Shown: one piece after another, positions 1,100-9,782 of the stretch
How positions within the stretch are numbered: the stretch's first letter is position 1
Layout of the letters: each line of letters begins with the position of its first letter
IMG/VR virus record: IMGVR_UViG_2582580933_000022
Length of the DNA: 9,782 nucleotides
Origin: a virus
Lineage: Duplodnaviria; Heunggongvirae; Uroviricota; Caudoviricetes
Reading direction: 5' to 3' (one strand)
Program-made: the position numbers and the translations under genes
The notes under the pieces: model-generated
What the model was told of the DNA's origin: nothing
What the model saw: only the letters and a program-made list of their open reading frames with translations
Databases searched by the model: none

Positions 1100-1483
1100 T
1101 CAACCAATCAACTTATAGCGACCATCCCGTGCATTGCGACGTACACGCTCAATCTTGAGGCATAGCGCCGCATCTGGCTTTTTTGGGACAGGTACGCGGC
1201 AATATTCAGAAGCTCGAGGAATATTGTTTATCCAGTCGATCACTTCACTTAAATACCAGGCCTTACGCCCTTCCGTAACCTGTACGCGTTCGGGGAACTC
1301 TCCGCGAGCCTCAAGGTTTAGCAATGTGCGACGGCTAAGGGTAGTAAGTTCCATCACCTGATTCATATCAACAAGGCGTTCACTTAAACGCATTTTGTCA
1401 GCAATAGCCTTTAATTCCTCTACTGCTGGATCCGGATACATCATTTCGGCAATTGGCTTAAGGTCATTGTAATGATTCTGCAT
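1100..1483 (-). CDS. AlpA/Xis-type (MerR-like winged HTH) DNA-binding protein, 127 aa, with N- and C-terminal extensions
   Basis: Central segment MELTTLSRRTLLNLEARGEFPERVQVTEGRKAWYLSEVIDWI fits the AlpA/excisionase HTH pattern (L..V.E.TG.SR.T.Y.L...G.FP.P.K.G.R...W...E...W). ATG 1483 preceded by AGGGGGA SD; start lies 11 nt after the stop of the gpD-like gene. Confidence 0.6.
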   Translation of the reverse strand: MQNHYNDLKPIAEMMYPDPAVEELKAIADKMRLSERLVDMNQVMELTTLSRRTLLNLEARGEFPERVQVTEGRKAWYLSEVIDWINNIPRASEYCRVPVPKKPDAALCLKIERVRRNARDGRYKLIG

Positions 1484-3103: not shown

Positions 3104-3526
3104 TTAAAACGGTATATTATCGCCGTACGGTTCATCATTCCCTGACTGTTGTTTTGCCCTGTTCAGTGCGTCAGTGGCCTGCCCCTGCTGGCCTTTTTTG
3201 CCGCCCGGTCGCGCCGCTCGCGCACTGATTACGCTGTCTGCGATAACCTGCCAGCCCTGCCGCGTTTCGCCGTTCTGGCCTGTCCACTGGCTTACCTGCA
3301 TGTTACCCGCCACGCTCACCAGTTCGCCTTTGTGGTGTCTGGCCAGTGCGTCGGCCTGTCTGCCAAACGCCAGGACAGATAACCACATCGTCGCCGTTCC
3401 GTCATCTGCCTGGCTGCACGGCAGGGGAACCGCCATACTCGCCATCGCCATTTGTGTCCCTTTGCTGGTGGTCTTTAACTGCGGGTCAGCCACCAGCCGC
3501 CCGTAAGCCGCTATCTGTGCTGTCAT
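3104..3526 (-). CDS. ssb: single-stranded DNA-binding protein (SSB)
   Basis: 140 aa; OB-fold region aligns with E. coli SSB (ATMWLSVLAFGRQADALARHHKGELVSVAGNMQVSQWTGQNGETRQGWQVIAD vs [53 protein letters not shown]). Gly/Gln-rich linker and C-terminal acidic tail ending ...DEPYGDNIPF, the canonical SSB protein-interaction tip. ATG 3526 overlaps the upstream stop (ATGA). Confidence 0.8.
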   Translation of the reverse strand: MTAQIAAYGRLVADPQLKTTSKGTQMAMASMAVPLPCSQADDGTATMWLSVLAFGRQADALARHHKGELVSVAGNMQVSQWTGQNGETRQGWQVIADSVISARAARPGGKKGQQGQATDALNRAKQQSGNDEPYGDNIPF

Positions 3527-3768
3527 GCTGTCTGCTCTCCGGTTTTAACATTGATGGTTGTCACCTGTTCCGCTTCGGCAATCTCCCGTTCTGTCAGTGT
3601 GGCAAAGTTTGCCGCCGCTGTGGTCATGAATGCGCTTATCAGTTCGGGATGTGCTTTCGCGTATCCCTCTCCCGCGTTGCGGTCGATGATTTTTATCGCC
3701 ACCCTCAGCCAGTGTTCTGTCAAATCAAGGGCGTGAGATTGTGGTTTTTTTGCGTGCTTCGTTGTCAC
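3523..3768 (-). CDS. hypothetical protein, 81 aa, translationally coupled to ssb
   Basis: GTG start at 3768 with GAGGT SD 7 nt upstream; stop overlaps the ssb ATG. No family recognised. Confidence 0.45.
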   Translation of the reverse strand: MTTKHAKKPQSHALDLTEHWLRVAIKIIDRNAGEGYAKAHPELISAFMTTAAANFATLTEREIAEAEQVTTINVKTGEQTA

Positions 3769-3810
3769 AGGCTTTACCTCACAGCAATAAAATAAAATTT
3801 TTGCATTTTA

Positions 3811-4045
3811 ACCCTTCACCTGTTCACCTTTTGCGATTTTCCCTTTTTATTCATGGTGTTAAGGGGTGAACAGTTTCACAAAAACTATTCACCAACTGTT
3901 CACCACTGTTCACCCTTAAAGCTCAATAAATAATCAAAAAGGTGAACAGTGAATAGTTTGGTGAACAGTTCACAAATAACTGTTCACCCTGTAATATACT
4001 GATATAAAAGACATTTATGACAGGGTGAACAGTGGTGAACAGTTA
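3811..4045. repeat. replication origin iteron array: 9 perfect copies of GGTGAACAG/CTGTTCACC plus degenerate copies, with AT-rich spacers
   Basis: Perfect 9-mers counted by hand: CTGTTCACC at 3820, 3896, 3906, 3980; GGTGAACAG at 3865, 3941, 3960, 4024, 4034. Degenerate copies near 3814, 3885, 3950. AT-rich stretches at 3921-3940 and 3991-4020. Located immediately 3' of the replication gene. The core TGTTCACC is, to my recollection, the P4 alpha-binding type I iteron of ori/crr. Confidence 0.8.
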
Positions 4046-4055
4046 TTCCATAAGT

Positions 4056-5861
4056 TTAATTTTTTCCATCGTCATTTGTGACCGATGCACATGATGGCAT
4101 CCAGTCTTCTGAATCCTCTGTCAGGGTCACATTTGAACGCAAACCGTGCTTCGTTTTCCGTTTCATATACTCCCTGCCATATTCCGCCATTGCCCCCGGC
4201 ATATCTTTACCGAAGCGCGTCAGTGTTACAGGTTTACCGAATCCGTGTGCCCTCATATATGCCAGATAGGCGTGATAAAGATACCTGCGCGGACTGAACG
4301 GAATAATTTCGGCATTACCCACTAACAGACCATCACACATTACCGACGACATGAGATAGCCGCAGAAGTCCACCAGCGAATCGCCCTCGCGTTTTATCAC
4401 CAGAGCTTCTTCTGATTTCTGCTGCTCATACAGCAGGCGTTTAGCTTCGTCCTGGTCAGAAAAACGAGTAAGCAGGTGGCGAATCACAACCGCCAGCTCT
4501 CCTTCTATTTTTTCTGCCAGCATGGGGTCGCGTTCGTTTTCCGGTACAACCTCCGAAAAATTGAATATCACCCGACGACGTGAGATCCCCCCGCTGCGGT
4601 CACTGAATGACATGGCGTTATTGTTCACCGCCAGCACGACCGCCTGAATGCGTGTTGAGTAGGGGGCTTTATGCTTCGGGTCGATTGCCACCTTGTCACC
4701 GCCTGTAATGGCCTTAATTCCTGCGCCATCACCAGCGTAGCGGGTCATATCCGGCATGATAATCAGCGAAAAGCCAACCACTAACGCGCGTTCCCTGGCA
4801 TCTTCCAGCGCCTTCATGCTTGCCGATACCGTGTTGGCCTTACCCGCCAGCATGGTGCAAATCTCCGCCATTACGCTTTTACCGCTTCCACCCGGCCCCG
4901 TTACCTCAAGAAATAACTGCCAGTCGTACCGGTTCGCCAGCACCATGAATAACGCCGCCAGTACGCGATCCGCTTTACGGTCATTCTCTGCCACCGAACG
5001 GCGCAACCATTTCCAGAAATTCGGCGCATGCGTTGCCAGCGTTTCCCCCTCTGCTGGTGGGCTGAACGGTAATTCACTGGCAATTAACAGCCAGTCGTTT
5101 TTGTCATGCTCCCGAAAATCGCCTGTCCGGGTATCAAAAACACCGTTACTGAATCCAATCAGGTTACGGGCGGTATTCCCCATTACGGGCAAACTTAACT
5201 TCATGGTATCGACCGCCGATTTGATGGCGTTCTGCGAATAACTGATCTCCGCATCAATAAAAATCTGCGCCATAGCCCGCTGTAACTCTTTATCCTGTAC
5301 TGGCTCCCATACAACGCCGTTGTAGTGGTGAACGGTGTCAGAGTCCGCATTAATTGCCAGTTCGCCGCCATAACGTGCCAGGAGAACTTCGCCGCGCTGG
5401 CTTGCTCCCATCTGGTTAAGCGCCAGTGGTGCGGCGCTGTCTTCTGTTTTTTTCTTAACAGGAAGCTGAATAACCAGACCATCAGAAAGATTCTGGCGCT
5501 CACGCTCCAGATATTCGCGCCACTCCTCCCGCTTCTGGCTGTGCATTCCCTCAGGGTAATATCTCGCATCCTGTACACCTGCCGCCGCCAGCTTTTGCCC
5601 GATGGCATTAATATTTGACGGCTTGATGTGGCCTGCCTTGTACAGCCGGACACAATAGCGACCATCGTCGATAATTTTCAGGTCTGCCAGTTCGTCAAGC
5701 TGGCTGTCTCCAAGCCATACAGGTGGCACGTTGTCGCCAGCAAGTCGCCCGTCCTGTTCCTGCCATTGTTTCGCGTGCGCCCAGGCATCGCTACCCGCAA
5801 AAATAATGACTTCGGTCATTTTGTCGTGTGGCTGTTTTTTTAAGTTCGGTGCCAGTTTCAT
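4056..5861 (-). CDS. replication initiator, P4-alpha / PICI Pri-Rep family (D5-like SF3 helicase P-loop domain)
   Basis: 601 aa; Walker A VTGPGGSGKSV, downstream Walker B-like hydrophobic stretch and GGDKVAID...RRRVIFNFSE region typical of phage/plasmid primase C-terminal (P4 family) helicase domains. ATG 5861 with AGGGG SD; ATGA overlap with the upstream ORF stop. Iterons lie immediately downstream. Confidence 0.8.
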   Translation of the reverse strand: MKLAPNLKKQPHDKMTEVIIFAGSDAWAHAKQWQEQDGRLAGDNVPPVWLGDSQLDELADLKIIDDGRYCVRLYKAGHIKPSNINAIGQKLAAAGVQDARYYPEGMHSQKREEWREYLERERQNLSDGLVIQLPVKKKTEDSAAPLALNQMGASQRGEVLLARYGGELAINADSDTVHHYNGVVWEPVQDKELQRAMAQIFIDAEISYSQNAIKSAVDTMKLSLPVMGNTARNLIGFSNGVFDTRTGDFREHDKNDWLLIASELPFSPPAEGETLATHAPNFWKWLRRSVAENDRKADRVLAALFMVLANRYDWQLFLEVTGPGGSGKSVMAEICTMLAGKANTVSASMKALEDARERALVVGFSLIIMPDMTRYAGDGAGIKAITGGDKVAIDPKHKAPYSTRIQAVVLAVNNNAMSFSDRSGGISRRRVIFNFSEVVPENERDPMLAEKIEGELAVVIRHLLTRFSDQDEAKRLLYEQQKSEEALVIKREGDSLVDFCGYLMSSVMCDGLLVGNAEIIPFSPRRYLYHAYLAYMRAHGFGKPVTLTRFGKDMPGAMAEYGREYMKRKTKHGLRSNVTLTEDSEDWMPSCASVTNDDGKN

Positions 5862-6412: not shown

Positions 6413-6641
6413 GGCTCACCACCACCATATCAGCCATGATAATTTTGCTGGCCTCATTCAGCGCCATATCAGCACTAAATTGCATAACAGCCAGTGAGTG
6501 AGGAACGAAAGCCCCGGCATATTCTGTTTCGCTGGTGGCGTGCTTATGCGCCTTGTCTGCGATAACAGAAATATCAATCAGCGCGTCCATCAGCGTTCTG
6601 ATAGCCTCGGCGGCTGCGTCCGGACGGGTGTTATTGCACAT
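6405..6641 (-). CDS. hypothetical protein, 78 aa, early operon
   Basis: ATG 6641 with AGGGGG SD 6 nt upstream; overlaps the stop of the candidate upstream ORF. No family recognised. Confidence 0.5.
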   Translation of the reverse strand: MCNNTRPDAAAEAIRTLMDALIDISVIADKAHKHATSETEYAGAFVPHSLAVMQFSADMALNEASKIIMADMVVVSHE

Positions 6642-6837
6642 GGCGCACCCCCTGACGAATACGGGCGGCGAATACCATCACGCAGCCAGCCGGGGATTGC
6701 TGGCGTGCTTCCTGTTCGCTGGTGGCCTCAATGGTAATCACGCGCGGCTGTGCCGTGCTCAGGGCGATAAAACGCCAGATGTATTTACTTAGGTTGTGCG
6801 AGTCCCGCCCTTGCGGGTGTATGGTATGATTTCTCAT
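6631..6837 (-). CDS. hypothetical protein, 68 aa; candidate first gene of the early operon
   Basis: This is the last 68 codons of the 399-aa ORF in the track. ATG 6837 with GAGG SD 5 nt upstream; stop/start overlap with the next gene (ATGTGCAATAA). The rest of the 399-aa frame is judged spurious. Confidence 0.4.
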   Translation of the reverse strand: MRNHTIHPQGRDSHNLSKYIWRFIALSTAQPRVITIEATSEQEARQQSPAGCVMVFAARIRQGVRHVQ

Positions 6838-6933
6838 AGCTGCCTCGATAATCTTGCTATCGTTGGTGGTTAGAAGCCCTGCGAGTGCTAACGACACTTG
6901 TGGGGCTTTGCTTTTTACTGTACCTACTGATAT

Positions 6934-6977
6934 TGTACGTACGTAACAGCAATGATAATAGGAGTTACGTACGTACA
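6934..6977. promoter_or_regulatory. operator: perfect 14-bp inverted repeat TGTACGTACGTAAC (6934-6947) / GTTACGTACGTACA (6964-6977), 16-bp spacer, overlapping the RBS and ATG of the RHH gene
   Basis: Seen directly; each arm contains the self-complementary core GTACGTAC. Candidate sigma70 elements TTGCTT (6908-6913), 17-bp spacer, TATTGT (6931-6936) sit just upstream on the plus strand. The region is also the divergent intergenic for the minus-strand early operon. Confidence 0.6.
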
Positions 6978-7168
6978 TGTCAACATTAAAGCGCGATAAA
7001 TCGCCACGCGGTGAGGGATGGTCTCCAACCTTCCAAATCAGAATCAGTAAAGAGCTACGCCAACAAGTAAATGAGGCGGCAACTTCTGACGGTCTAACCC
7101 TTGGTAACTGGTTTAAAGAATTAGCTAGGGCAGAACTAAAGCGGCGCGGCATTGAACCAAAAGGATAA
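6977..7168 (+). CDS. ribbon-helix-helix (Arc/MetJ/CopG-type) DNA-binding protein, 63 aa
   Basis: Segment FQIRISKELRQQVNEAATSDGLTLGNWFKELARAEL has the beta-strand / helix / GxT-turn / helix layout of RHH proteins. ATG 6977 lies inside the right operator arm. AT-rich coding sequence. Confidence 0.6.
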   Translation: MSTLKRDKSPRGEGWSPTFQIRISKELRQQVNEAATSDGLTLGNWFKELARAELKRRGIEPKG

Positions 7169-7195
7169 AAGCAATTTCGTTTAAGGTAACACGAT

Positions 7196-7549
7196 ATGAA
7201 ATACGAATTCTTTGCAACCAGTAGTTCAGGAATGGATGTATATATAGTGACCGTATCCAATGACACTGGGCCTTTAATTATGAAATGTAACTGCGCTGCT
7301 GGTGAGAAGGGGATTTTATGCAGGCATAGAAAAGCTCTTATTACTCGAAAAATTAAAGGTGTTTTTACACCGCCAAGGCGTAACGACCCAGAAAAACTAA
7401 AGGAAGCAATGGACTTAATTGCTGTGTATGGGATCGAAAGAAAGTTAGAATTATACACTGCAGAGTTAGAACAGGCGGAGCAAACATGGTTGATCGTTCG
7501 TTCTGCTATAAAATCCAAGATCAACTCTCTTGTTGAACCCAAAGGCTGA
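7196..7549 (+). CDS. small SWIM zinc-finger domain protein, 117 aa, function unknown
   Basis: Motif VYIVTVSNDTGPLIMKCNCAAGEKGILCRHRKAL matches the SWIM signature CxCx(n)CxH with the conserved upstream hydrophobic strand. AAGGT SD 9 nt upstream; 27-nt gap after the RHH gene; AT-rich like its partner. Confidence 0.55.
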   Translation: MKYEFFATSSSGMDVYIVTVSNDTGPLIMKCNCAAGEKGILCRHRKALITRKIKGVFTPPRRNDPEKLKEAMDLIAVYGIERKLELYTAELEQAEQTWLIVRSAIKSKINSLVEPKG

Positions 7550-7655
7550 CAGCCCACCAGCAAGCCAGCACACTGATCACATTGCCAACCAGCCGCAAAT
7601 GTGGCATTGTTGGCTATGCTCATGCGTTGGGGATAACGTGTAGCTTGTGTCGAGG

Positions 7656-7684
7656 GGCCACCGTAGCGGGTGGCCTTTGTTTTG
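7656..7684 (+). terminator. Rho-independent terminator ending the RHH-SWIM operon
   Basis: GGCCACC-gtagcg-GGTGGCC perfect 7-bp GC-rich stem followed by TTTGTTTT; about 105 nt downstream of the SWIM gene stop. Confidence 0.65.
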
Positions 7685-7834
7685 CCTGTTATCCGGCAAT
7701 TGTGGCGCTTCGCCACACGGTTGATATAATTCCCCTGCACTGATCCATTTTTTTCGCAGCAGGTTAATTGTTCGCAAGGGCGCTCCGGCAACGGGGCGCT
7801 TTTTGTTATGTTCATCGCGTTACGCCTCACACCA

Positions 7835-8041
7835 TTACGCAGCCGTTCCGCGCGCTTCTTCCTCGCGCTCTTTCAGCCAGGCCAGCACTTCATCTTCATA
7901 CCAGCCAACACGACGCAGACCGATTTTGAAGCCTTTCGGGAATTTTCCGGCGTTGATCATGTCCTGTAGCGAACTGTCTGCCTTGATGCGCAGAATATTT
8001 TTTACTTCCTGACGGGTAAGTATTTTTCTGATTGTTTCCAC
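7835..8041 (-). CDS. alpA: AlpA-family prophage transcriptional regulator / excisionase-like HTH protein, 68 aa
   Basis: ILTRQEVKNILRIKADSSLQDMINAGKFPKGFKIGLRRVGWYEDEVLAWL matches the AlpA pattern (compare E. coli AlpA ...ILRLPAVIQKTGMARATIYDWLNPKSPRYDATFPKKRQLGVKSVGWIEAEIDEWL). GTG start at 8041 with GAGGT SD 8 nt upstream; canonical position next to int. Confidence 0.8.
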   Translation of the reverse strand: METIRKILTRQEVKNILRIKADSSLQDMINAGKFPKGFKIGLRRVGWYEDEVLAWLKEREEEARGTAA

Positions 8042-8106: not shown

Positions 8107-8146
8107 AAAACAGTACCCACCGTTTTAAAACGGTACCCACTGTTTT
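8107..8146. promoter_or_regulatory. two tandem 20-bp repeats AAAACAGTACCCACCGTTTT / AAAACGGTACCCACTGTTTT with strong internal dyad symmetry, 66-105 bp upstream of alpA
   Basis: Seen directly: 18/20 identity between the repeats; the junction forms the perfect 16-bp palindrome ACCGTTTTAAAACGGT, and the outer ends AAAACAGT/ACTGTTTT are also complementary. Candidate regulator-binding site controlling alpA. Confidence 0.5.
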
Positions 8147-8540: not shown

Positions 8541-9782
8541 TTACACGGCACGGATACCCCTTTTACCACTGGCTATGGTCACTCCGGTAGCTGCGGCCTC
8601 TACAAATTCCCCCCACCAGCGCATAAGCACCACGCGCTTTTCCAGGTAGTTACTTCGGTTATATGCTCGCCTTACCTCGTTCGTGTCCACGTGTGCGAGC
8701 GCGGCCTCGATTACGTCCGGCTCGAATCCTTCCTCGTTCGCTGCTGTGCTGAATATGGCGCGTAATCCGTGAGACACCAGCACACCAGCGTAACCCATCC
8801 GGCGCAATGCGGCGTTAGCGGTCTGGCTGCTCATTGGCAGCATCGGGTTTTTAAGGCTGGGAAAAACGTGTTCCCTATGTGCGCTGATTGGCTTCATGGT
8901 TTCCAGTACAGCCATAGCCTGACCGCAAAGGGGGATCACATGGTCACGGCGCATCTTCATGCGTCCGGCTGGAATCGTCCAGGTTTCGGCATCGAGATCT
9001 ATTTCTTCCCAGCGTGCGGCGGCTGCTTCGGCTGGGCGTGCTACGGTCAGCAGTTGCCACTCAATCAGCAATCTGGTTTGCCGTTCTATGCTGGCGACCG
9101 ATAAATCGTGCATTAGCTGCGGTAGCTGTTCCGGTCGGATGGTTGGCATGTGCTTTTTGGTGGGTGAGGGGAATGCCTTGCGGACGTTCGCGGCGGTGTT
9201 GATGTCAATCAGCCCACTGTTGGCAGCAAAATCCATCACTTCATTGATGCGTTGTAAAACGCGTTTCAGGGTTTCCAGGTTGCCGCGTGCTTTAATGGGT
9301 GTGAGTATCTCAACAAAGCGGCGAGCTGTGAGGGTATCTATTGGCGTGTTTCCGATGTACGGGAATACGTATTTTTCCAGGGATCGCCAGATATCCTTAA
9401 TCGTGTTGTAAGCCAGATTCTGGCCTTTTTTCATCTCGTACCAGTCCGAGGCAACTTTTTCGAACGTGTTGCCCTTTTTCCGACTCTCTGCTTCACGTTT
9501 CCGGCGTTCGTGGTCCTGTGGGTCAACTCCCTTCGCTATGAGTGACCTGTATTCATTCCGTCGTTCTCTGGCATCGGACAGGGAAACATCATTCAGCGAT
9601 CCGAGGCTGATGATAGTCCGTTTTTTATCTGCCGGGCGGTAGTACGTAAAACGCCAGATTTTTGATCCGGAGGGTTTCACCAGAAGAAATAATCCTCCAC
9701 CATCCTGCAGGGTGTATTCCTTTTCCCCAGGTCGTGCGTTTTTGATCTCCGTAATGGTTAGTGGGGTGGTTTTTCGTGCCAT
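8541..9782 (-). CDS. int: site-specific tyrosine recombinase, P4-type integrase
   Basis: 413 aa; N-terminal arm-type domain (TLQDGGGLFLLVKPSGSKIWRFTYY...ISLGS...SLSDARERR) and C-terminal catalytic region (HGLRAIFST...ALAHVDTNEVRRAYNRSNYLEKR) typical of P4 / CP4-57 IntA-like integrases. The ATG is bases 9782-9780, the last three bases of the window, so attachment site and any target tRNA are outside it. Confidence 0.9.
   Translation of the reverse strand: MARKTTPLTITEIKNARPGEKEYTLQDGGGLFLLVKPSGSKIWRFTYYRPADKKRTIISLGSLNDVSLSDARERRNEYRSLIAKGVDPQDHERRKREAESRKKGNTFEKVASDWYEMKKGQNLAYNTIKDIWRSLEKYVFPYIGNTPIDTLTARRFVEILTPIKARGNLETLKRVLQRINEVMDFAANSGLIDINTAANVRKAFPSPTKKHMPTIRPEQLPQLMHDLSVASIERQTRLLIEWQLLTVARPAEAAAARWEEIDLDAETWTIPAGRMKMRRDHVIPLCGQAMAVLETMKPISAHREHVFPSLKNPMLPMSSQTANAALRRMGYAGVLVSHGLRAIFSTAANEEGFEPDVIEAALAHVDTNEVRRAYNRSNYLEKRVVLMRWWGEFVEAAATGVTIASGKRGIRAV

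Follow-up and report, generated by a model that had tools for sequence, protein, structure and literature searches.

A P4-type iteron array as predicted replication origin of an EcCICFT073-type PICI of Escherichia coli

The window (the whole stretch of 9,782 nucleotides that was analysed) contains a dense array of short repeats directly behind the gene for a 601-aa protein, which raises the question of which function the array serves and whether it belongs to the neighbouring protein. The initial annotation had described nine perfect and several degenerate repeats in both orientations with AT-rich segments in between, had placed them at 3811-4045, 3' of the 601-aa ORF, and had taken their core for the type I iteron of phage P4.

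Composition and layout of the iteron array

The repeats were found as described. Perfect 9-mers GGTGAACAG and CTGTTCACC occur exactly nine times in the 9.8-kb window, all of them inside 3820-4042 (223 bp), and are accompanied by one copy with a single mismatch and by two decayed copies that were seen on reading the sequence. The iterons thus span 3813-4042, in agreement with the limits given before, and the nearest iteron ends 14 bp past the stop codon of the 601-aa ORF (rep; 4056-5861, minus strand).

3813-4042, no strand assigned: whole iteron array, predicted origin, 12 TGTTCACC-type sites
Starts 3865, 3941, 3960, 4024 and 4034, plus-strand reading: GGTGAACAG, five perfect copies
Starts 3820, 3896, 3906 and 3980, plus-strand reading: CTGTTCACC, four perfect copies
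3885-3893: CTATTCACC, one-mismatch iteron (tenth copy)
3813-3820: CCTTCACC, decayed iteron
About 3949-3956: GTGAATAG, decayed iteron

If up to one mismatch is allowed, the whole window contains 15 matches, while 200 dinucleotide-preserving shuffles of the whole 9.8-kb window contained 1.9 +/- 1.3 and none of them reached 15. The remaining five matches lie scattered outside 3820-4042, each with a single mismatch.

Read on the plus strand, the order of the sites is >> 44 < 21 >>> 34 <<< 21 > 43 << (start-to-start distances in bp; > stands for TGTTCACC on the plus strand). The array therefore forms an imperfect palindrome, in which two units of about 105 bp are arranged head to head around an AT-rich centre of 26 bp. 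The two units are 61% identical to each other, and the iterons show a phasing of 10-11 bp, as in P4. The following parts can be distinguished:

3941-4042, plus strand: U1, rep-proximal half-unit, 61% identical to P4 ori1 and in register with it; tandem sites at 3941-3949, about 3949-3956 (decayed) and 3960-3968, an inverted site at 3980-3988, a 35-bp AT-rich spacer, and tandem sites at 4024-4032 and 4034-4042
3813-3914, minus strand: U2, rep-distal half-unit, an inverted copy of the unit, 67% identical to P4 ori1 and likewise in register with it; tandem sites at 3906-3914, 3896-3904 and 3885-3893 (one mismatch), an inverted site at 3865-3873, a 36-bp spacer, and sites at 3820-3828 and 3813-3820 (decayed)
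3915-3940, no strand assigned: central AT-rich spacer at the dyad centre, 81% AT
3989-4023: AT-rich spacer within U1, 74% AT
3829-3864: AT-rich spacer within U2, 67% AT

Compared to an AT content of 51% for the window, all three spacers are enriched in A and T. The central one is a candidate site for the initial melting of the DNA, for which the two spacers within the units would be alternative candidates.

The core octamer is indeed the type I iteron of P4, since TGTTCACC carries the label 'ori type 1 repeat' in the P4 reference genome. Based on the GenBank annotation, secondary citations and general knowledge, we take these iterons to be bound by the alpha protein; a full-text literature search for the octamer yielded unrelated primer sequences only. 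In P4, 11 perfect copies are present, and they are confined to crr (4291-4590, adjoining the 3' end of the alpha gene) and ori (9310-9413). A comparison of the layouts showed that P4 ori1 (L001 9310-9413; <<< 22 > 43 <<) corresponds to exactly one unit of the type found in the window, and the 19-mer GGTGAACAGTGGTGAACAG is common to both origins. The repeats of crr follow the unit more loosely, with 47-59% identity to the window units compared to 61-67% for ori1. An iteron cluster directly 3' of the initiator gene is thus a common feature of P4 (crr) and the window. While in P4 ori and crr are separate, with about 4.7 kb between them, the window has one compact palindromic origin, which occupies the position of crr but is built as two head-to-head copies of ori1. 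Start-to-start spacings of 43-44 bp are common to P4 ori1, the P4 crr units and the corresponding arrays of vB_KppS-Ant (an Escherichia phage) and of an element in Oceanisphaera sediminis. The two-unit layout with matching spacings recurs in these two elements and, with its own iteron word, in EcCICFT073. For the decayed terminal iteron CCTTCACC of U2, the counterpart in vB_KppS-Ant is a perfect copy.

Neither the window nor the island flanks of the near-identical locus L003 contained a second TGTTCACC cluster. A lone perfect TGTTCACC is located at 4622-4629 within the rep coding sequence (AVNNN codons in the helicase core) and also occurs in L003; P4 alpha has no counterpart of it, and it is probably a coding coincidence. 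DnaA boxes were not found in the window origin, while TTATCCACA, a consensus DnaA box, lies at the edge of P4 crr (L001 4281-4290). Known RNA families were not found in the window. No terminator between rep and the iterons, unlike in P4, and no minus-strand promoter for the downstream genes were predicted.

The 601-aa Rep protein

Domain annotation of the 601-aa protein revealed D5_N, an SF3 helicase and a C-terminal winged helix, but no primase domains:

4056-5861, minus strand: rep, 601-aa initiator-helicase (ORF and homology)
5472-5861, minus strand: N-terminal alpha/beta domain, not P4-like (Rep residues 1-130)
4575-5390, minus strand: D5_N and SF3 helicase ATPase core (DUF5906), Rep residues 158-429 (Pfam)
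4095-4385, minus strand: C-terminal winged-helix origin-binding domain (Pfam Pox_D5), Rep residues 493-589

Rep residues 134-591 and P4 alpha residues 313-771 are 50% identical. In the SF3 core the identity to alpha is 66%. Pfam reports D5_N and DUF5906 (SF3 ATPase) for the helicase part, and the helicase core also matches the cryo-EM structure of SaPI5 PriRep (7OLA, E=3e-10). The winged-helix binding domain, for which Pfam reports Pox_D5, is 48% identical to that of alpha and matches its structure (origin-binding winged-helix domain of P4 alpha, PDB 1KA8, E=2.4e-24). For the N-terminal part no such relation was observed. In P4 alpha, Pfam finds a primase zinc ribbon (Zn_Ribbon_Prim, residues 30-66) and a Toprim domain (residues 210-299), whereas neither was found in Rep, so that the missing primase signature noted before stands. 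Judged by its sequence, the protein would be fairly described as the trimmed or domain-swapped initiator with P4-like origin recognition that had been suggested for it.

Since Rep has no recognisable primase, priming is probably supplied from elsewhere, for example by the host or by read-through transcription. The identical rep gene in L003 carries the RefSeq name 'DNA primase family protein'. This name, as well as the 'pri' in 'pri-rep' as used for Gram-negative elements, may be a misnomer, as Gram-negative 'pri-rep' proteins of the type found in the window are likely not primases.

The first 120-130 residues or so of Rep matched no Pfam or NCBIfam family, and in a profile comparison this domain did not align to the Toprim domain of P4 alpha. 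At the end of strand 1, where Toprim has the catalytic Glu followed by Gly, an invariant Ala22 is present (motif TEVIIFAGSDAW), and a conserved DxD after strand 3 was not found. Tentatively, the domain can be regarded as a Toprim-like fold that, because of these two features, is probably not catalytic. It is rare, with 92 representatives among 1.84 billion proteins, and in all proteins long enough to judge it is N-terminal. The ATPase bodies to which it is fused are of four kinds, namely P4-alpha-like SF3, RepA/AAA_25, DUF927 and VapE-like ones.

The identities along Rep differ between its relatives. The N-terminal domain of the window protein shows 71% identity to EcCICFT073 and 43% to vB_KppS-Ant, while the reverse relation holds true for the helicase and the binding domain. 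Accordingly, the phylogeny of the N-terminal domain is decoupled from that of the rest of Rep. Several E. coli proteins of 144-233 aa (P0011, P0014, P0075, P0079 and P0100) join the Rep N-terminal domain directly to SSB (PF00436), which suggests deletion derivatives without helicase, origin and 81-aa ORF.

The island, its relatives and the exchange of the replicon

The window is an EcCICFT073-type PICI of E. coli of about 10 kb. On the minus strand, it comprises a P4-type int, AlpA, small ORFs, DUF4222, rep, the iterons, an 81-aa ORF, SSB, capsid, decoration, an AlpA-like protein and a Nu1-like TerS. As is characteristic of PICIs, int, alpA and pri-rep point in one direction, a specific chromosomal site is occupied, and tail and lysis genes are not present. 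In L003, the integrase gene adjoins tRNA-Pro, and the island is located between tRNA-Pro/yejM and yejO. The genes outside rep that are of importance here are as follows:

8541-9782, minus strand: P4-type tyrosine integrase
7835-8041, minus strand: AlpA regulator
3523-3768, minus strand: 81-aa ORF of unknown function (phrog_1231)
3104-3526, minus strand: SSB gene
1100-1483, minus strand: second AlpA-like protein, amid lambda-type morphogenesis homologs

The 81-aa ORF and ssb are located downstream of the origin, are codirectional and travel with rep and the origin in six of six relatives (L006-L011); they may have a role in replication. Homologs of lambda-type morphogenesis proteins, comprising major capsid E, decoration D and a Nu1-like small terminase, are encoded at 356-2973. 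Judged by this lambda-type set, a lambda-like phage and not P2 is probably the helper. The P4 genes psu, sid, delta and epsilon were neither among the Pfam and PHROG hits nor in the RefSeq annotation of L003. Between alpA and the upstream 76-aa ORF, the 20-bp unit AAAACAGTACCCACCGTTTT occurs twice in tandem (8107-8146) and may be the binding site of a regulator. A 399-aa ORF on the minus strand (6631-7830) is very likely spurious. Over this segment, RefSeq annotates small genes in relatives, one Icd-like and others on the plus strand, including a SWIM zinc-finger protein (7196-7549, plus strand); the GC skew switches its sign there, and the segment varies among otherwise near-identical islands.

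EcCICFT073 itself is syntenic with the window (int, alpA, Icd-like, DUF4222, rep, ori, small ORF, ssb, lambda-E-like capsid and decoration). The Rep proteins are 49% identical over the full length, with 71% in the N-terminal domain as mentioned above and 33% in the origin-binding domain. The origin of EcCICFT073 is located immediately 3' of rep and shows the same iteron layout with AT-rich spacers, while its iteron word is TGTCTACC instead of TGTTCACC. Further differences concern the attachment site, which for the window island is tRNA-Pro, next to yejM, and the small terminase: the window island encodes the Nu1-like TerS, whereas EcCICFT073 has been reported without a TerS homolog, though it has capsid and decoration genes.

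In vB_KppS-Ant (LR881103, a 16.5-kb induced element), Rep is 76% identical to that of the window, and its gene is followed directly on the 3' side by eight perfect and three near-perfect TGTTCACC sites. In contrast to the window island, this element encodes a terminase, a portal, an HK97-type capsid and a connector of its own and therefore belongs to the capsid-forming PICI type. Outside the Enterobacterales, a genome-wide scan with the 19-mer mostly yielded chance matches or unrelated tandem repeats; apart from P4-like loci within the Enterobacterales, only the locus from Oceanisphaera sediminis (Aeromonadales) was informative. At L036 6885-7102, 12 TGTTCACC-type sites in palindromic layout directly follow the gene for a PICI-type Rep without the P4 primase domain, which is 71% identical to the window Rep in the matched SF3 part and 58% in the binding domain. 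The design of this origin thus extends beyond the Enterobacterales. Classic P4-like elements of other Enterobacterales retain the full alpha with primase and the split ori and crr. In the full-size temperate phage Scapp of Serratia, a cluster of TTGCACTTTTC in both orientations was observed 3' of the gene for an 839-aa alpha-like primase-helicase (L012 3046-3362). In the P4-alpha family, it may be a general rule that the origin lies 3' of the gene.

The question of whether the iterons belong to Rep can be addressed by a comparison with L004 (E. coli E2), which has the same island, located at the same site and bordered by flanks of 90-100% identity. In L004, a RepA/AAA_25 helicase replaces Rep residues ~118-601. 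The resulting protein has 471 aa, of which the first ~117 residues are as in the window Rep. Behind the helicase gene, at L004 6785-6976, CTCCTCACTTT iterons are present in both orientations, while TGTTCACC is missing. A 52-aa ORF annotated across these iterons is probably spurious. From the comparison of the two islands, the exchanged segment can be delimited:

3740-5510, no strand assigned: exchangeable replicon cassette (helicase, origin-binding domain, iterons), with a boundary that is sharp at ~5500-5515 and gradual over 3660-3780

Hence, helicase, binding domain and iterons are co-inherited and are exchanged as a block behind a constant N-terminal domain. The same connection is reflected in the iteron words of the relatives, all of which have their iterons 3' of the initiator gene:

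vB_KppS-Ant: binding domain 82% identical to the window, iteron TGTTCACC
P4: binding domain 48% identical to the window, iteron TGTTCACC
EcCICFT073: binding domain 33% identical to the window, iteron TGTCTACC
Serratia phage Scapp: binding domain 21% identical to the window, iteron TTGCACTTTTC

As far as sequences can tell, iteron specificity tracks the binding domain.

In seven closely related E. coli variants of the origin, 4 of 90 iteron columns were variable compared to 33 of 197 spacer columns (Fisher p=0.004), and in one of the seven, two whole iterons were cleanly lost. A 271-bp origin sequence with 88-100% identity was found in 594 of 5,426 complete E. coli genomes (~11%), and among the matches listed it adjoins a 'DNA primase family protein' (rep) gene. 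The module of rep, origin, 81-aa ORF and ssb occurs together with several capsid modules, including those of capsid-forming PICI types, in line with published gene flow between PICIs and cfPICIs that involves primase-replicase genes (PMC10085698).

Assignment of the origin and alternative explanations

Taken together, 3813-4042 is very probably the vegetative replication origin of this EcCICFT073-type PICI. For EcCICFT073, the region immediately 3' of the initiator gene has been described as the origin, in which an AT-rich region lies between two sets of iterons (PMC6092414); the window likewise has its array immediately 3' of rep and two iteron units around an AT-rich centre. The cloned rep and ori of EcCICFT073 maintained a temperature-sensitive plasmid, and deletion of ori lowered the maintenance (Fillol-Salom et al. 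2018, ISME J, PMC6092414). One deletion primer in the supplements of that paper covers two of the EcCICFT073 iterons (PMC6092414). Amplification of the island upon induction of a helper phage has likewise been shown for EcCICFT073 (PMC6092414).

A second comparison is provided by the SaPIs (Ubeda 2007; Qiao 2022, PMC9371898). Their SF3 helicase Rep is self-loading and recognises, by means of its C-terminal winged helix, iterons situated shortly downstream of rep; two hexamers are thought to load, one on either side of an AT-rich centre (PMC9371898). The corresponding features were found in the window, with an SF3 helicase and a C-terminal winged helix in Rep, iterons directly downstream, and at least two opposed iterons per side around the AT-rich centre (compare PMC9371898). 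Differences are that SaPI iterons are penta- or hexanucleotides while the iteron word of the window is an octamer, that SaPIs encode their primase in a gene of its own or have a true primase as a fusion, and that the SaPIs, whose hosts are Gram-positive, show only distant sequence similarity to the window Rep.

Based on these systems, the following course can be proposed. The adjacent gene would provide an SF3 helicase that acts as initiator and loads itself, with helicase and DNA-binding parts homologous to those of P4 alpha. Its C-terminal winged helix would bind the helically phased TGTTCACC iterons in the two head-to-head units, and Rep bound on both sides of the AT-rich spacers would melt the DNA. 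Finally, one hexamer per arm could start bidirectional replication after induction and excision of the island. Binding, melting and initiation are extrapolated in this proposal from P4, SaPI and EcCICFT073, and the loading of a double hexamer as well as the source of priming remain likewise presumptive for the window Rep.

One alternative follows from P4 itself. The P4 cluster immediately 3' of alpha is crr, which is annotated apart from the origin, so that the position of an array alone is no proof of an initiation site. According to the P4 reference annotation, crr is required in cis for replication. The window array, which lies in the position of crr, could accordingly be a cis enhancer of this kind, from which bound Rep loops to a separate initiation origin, in P4 about 4.7 kb off. 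For such a second site, only the lone octamer inside rep was found in the window and the flanks of L003. In addition, the window units are closer to ori1 than to the crr units, and in EcCICFT073 rep together with the iteron region next to it was sufficient on a plasmid (PMC6092414). A crr-like enhancer is therefore considered improbable.

Another explanation would be that the array serves mainly as operator or for copy control, with Rep regulating the read-through to the 81-aa ORF, ssb and the capsid genes or handcuffing copies, and with the origin role being secondary. As neither a terminator nor a minus-strand promoter was predicted in the stretch from rep to the downstream genes, the array must be transcribed through, and plasmid iteron arrays are well known for both origin and regulatory or copy-control functions. 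On the other hand, features of origins are present, namely the AT-rich spacers, the arrangement as a dyad and the array's homology to P4 ori1. A putative regulation would be compatible with the function as origin, and a mainly regulatory role has an even smaller chance than that of an enhancer.

It is highly improbable that the repeats are sites for another protein of the island, although the Nu1-like TerS, the P4-type integrase and the two AlpA-like proteins belong to kinds of proteins that bind repeats, which would make the array a packaging site, integrase arm sites or AlpA sites. The integrase and AlpA-type accessions of L004 are those of L003 and the TerS is closely related, yet the iterons change with the helicase cassette. 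Moreover, TGTTCACC is the site annotated for P4 replication, and about 4.5 kb separate the array from int and the att end. An explanation by chance repeats or by low-complexity sequence without function is refuted by the shuffles, by the conservation of the array in 594 genomes, by the lower variation of the iterons compared to the spacers and by the layout kept in a different bacterial order (Oceanisphaera, Aeromonadales).

With the assignment as origin, the novelty of the locus is lower than the first reading implied, since the replicons of Gram-negative PICIs normally have their iteron origin directly 3' of pri-rep, a layout published and tested for EcCICFT073 (PMC6092414). An origin of the TGTTCACC type may even be drawn already in Fig. 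2a of the 2018 paper (PMC6092414). Modestly new are the identity of iteron word and unit layout with P4 ori1, the exchange of helicase, binding domain and origin en bloc behind a constant N-terminal domain, the probable lack of primase function in 'pri-rep' proteins of this kind and a possible cross-talk with the replication of P4-like satellites. Furthermore, a cognate pair of initiator and origin is assigned for a very common satellite replicon of E. coli, present in the ~11% of complete genomes given above.

Replicases of different satellite families may be analogs rather than homologs, as suggested in a 2023 survey (PMC10085698). Since the PICI and P4 replicons compared here share the helicase, the binding domain, the iteron word and the unit layout, they provide a useful counter-example to this suggestion. 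The two satellite families have different hijacking genes and probably different helpers, and P4-like satellites occur in more than 30% of Enterobacterales genomes (PMC8628076).

A more far-reaching reading is put forward tentatively and is rather doubtful as a whole. It would regard the origin as a dimer of ori1 units that is read by an alpha-orthologous domain and allows cross-talk between P4 and PICIs, and the pseudo-Toprim domain, which occurs on four helicase families, as a priming adaptor used across helicases. If this were true, P4 alpha and the PICI Rep might fire, titrate or block each other's origins, causing coupled replication or incompatibility between two satellite families that share an E. 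coli cell, and the N-terminal domain might supply or recruit priming independently of the helicase. Replication cross-talk between P4-like satellites and PICIs is thereby a testable question, while the current understanding is not overturned.

Some genomes contain several copies of the origin (e.g. NZ_CP148493.1), in up to six places, and four copies were observed in a strain with an island 99% identical to the window. Islands of the same specificity evidently coexist in one chromosome.
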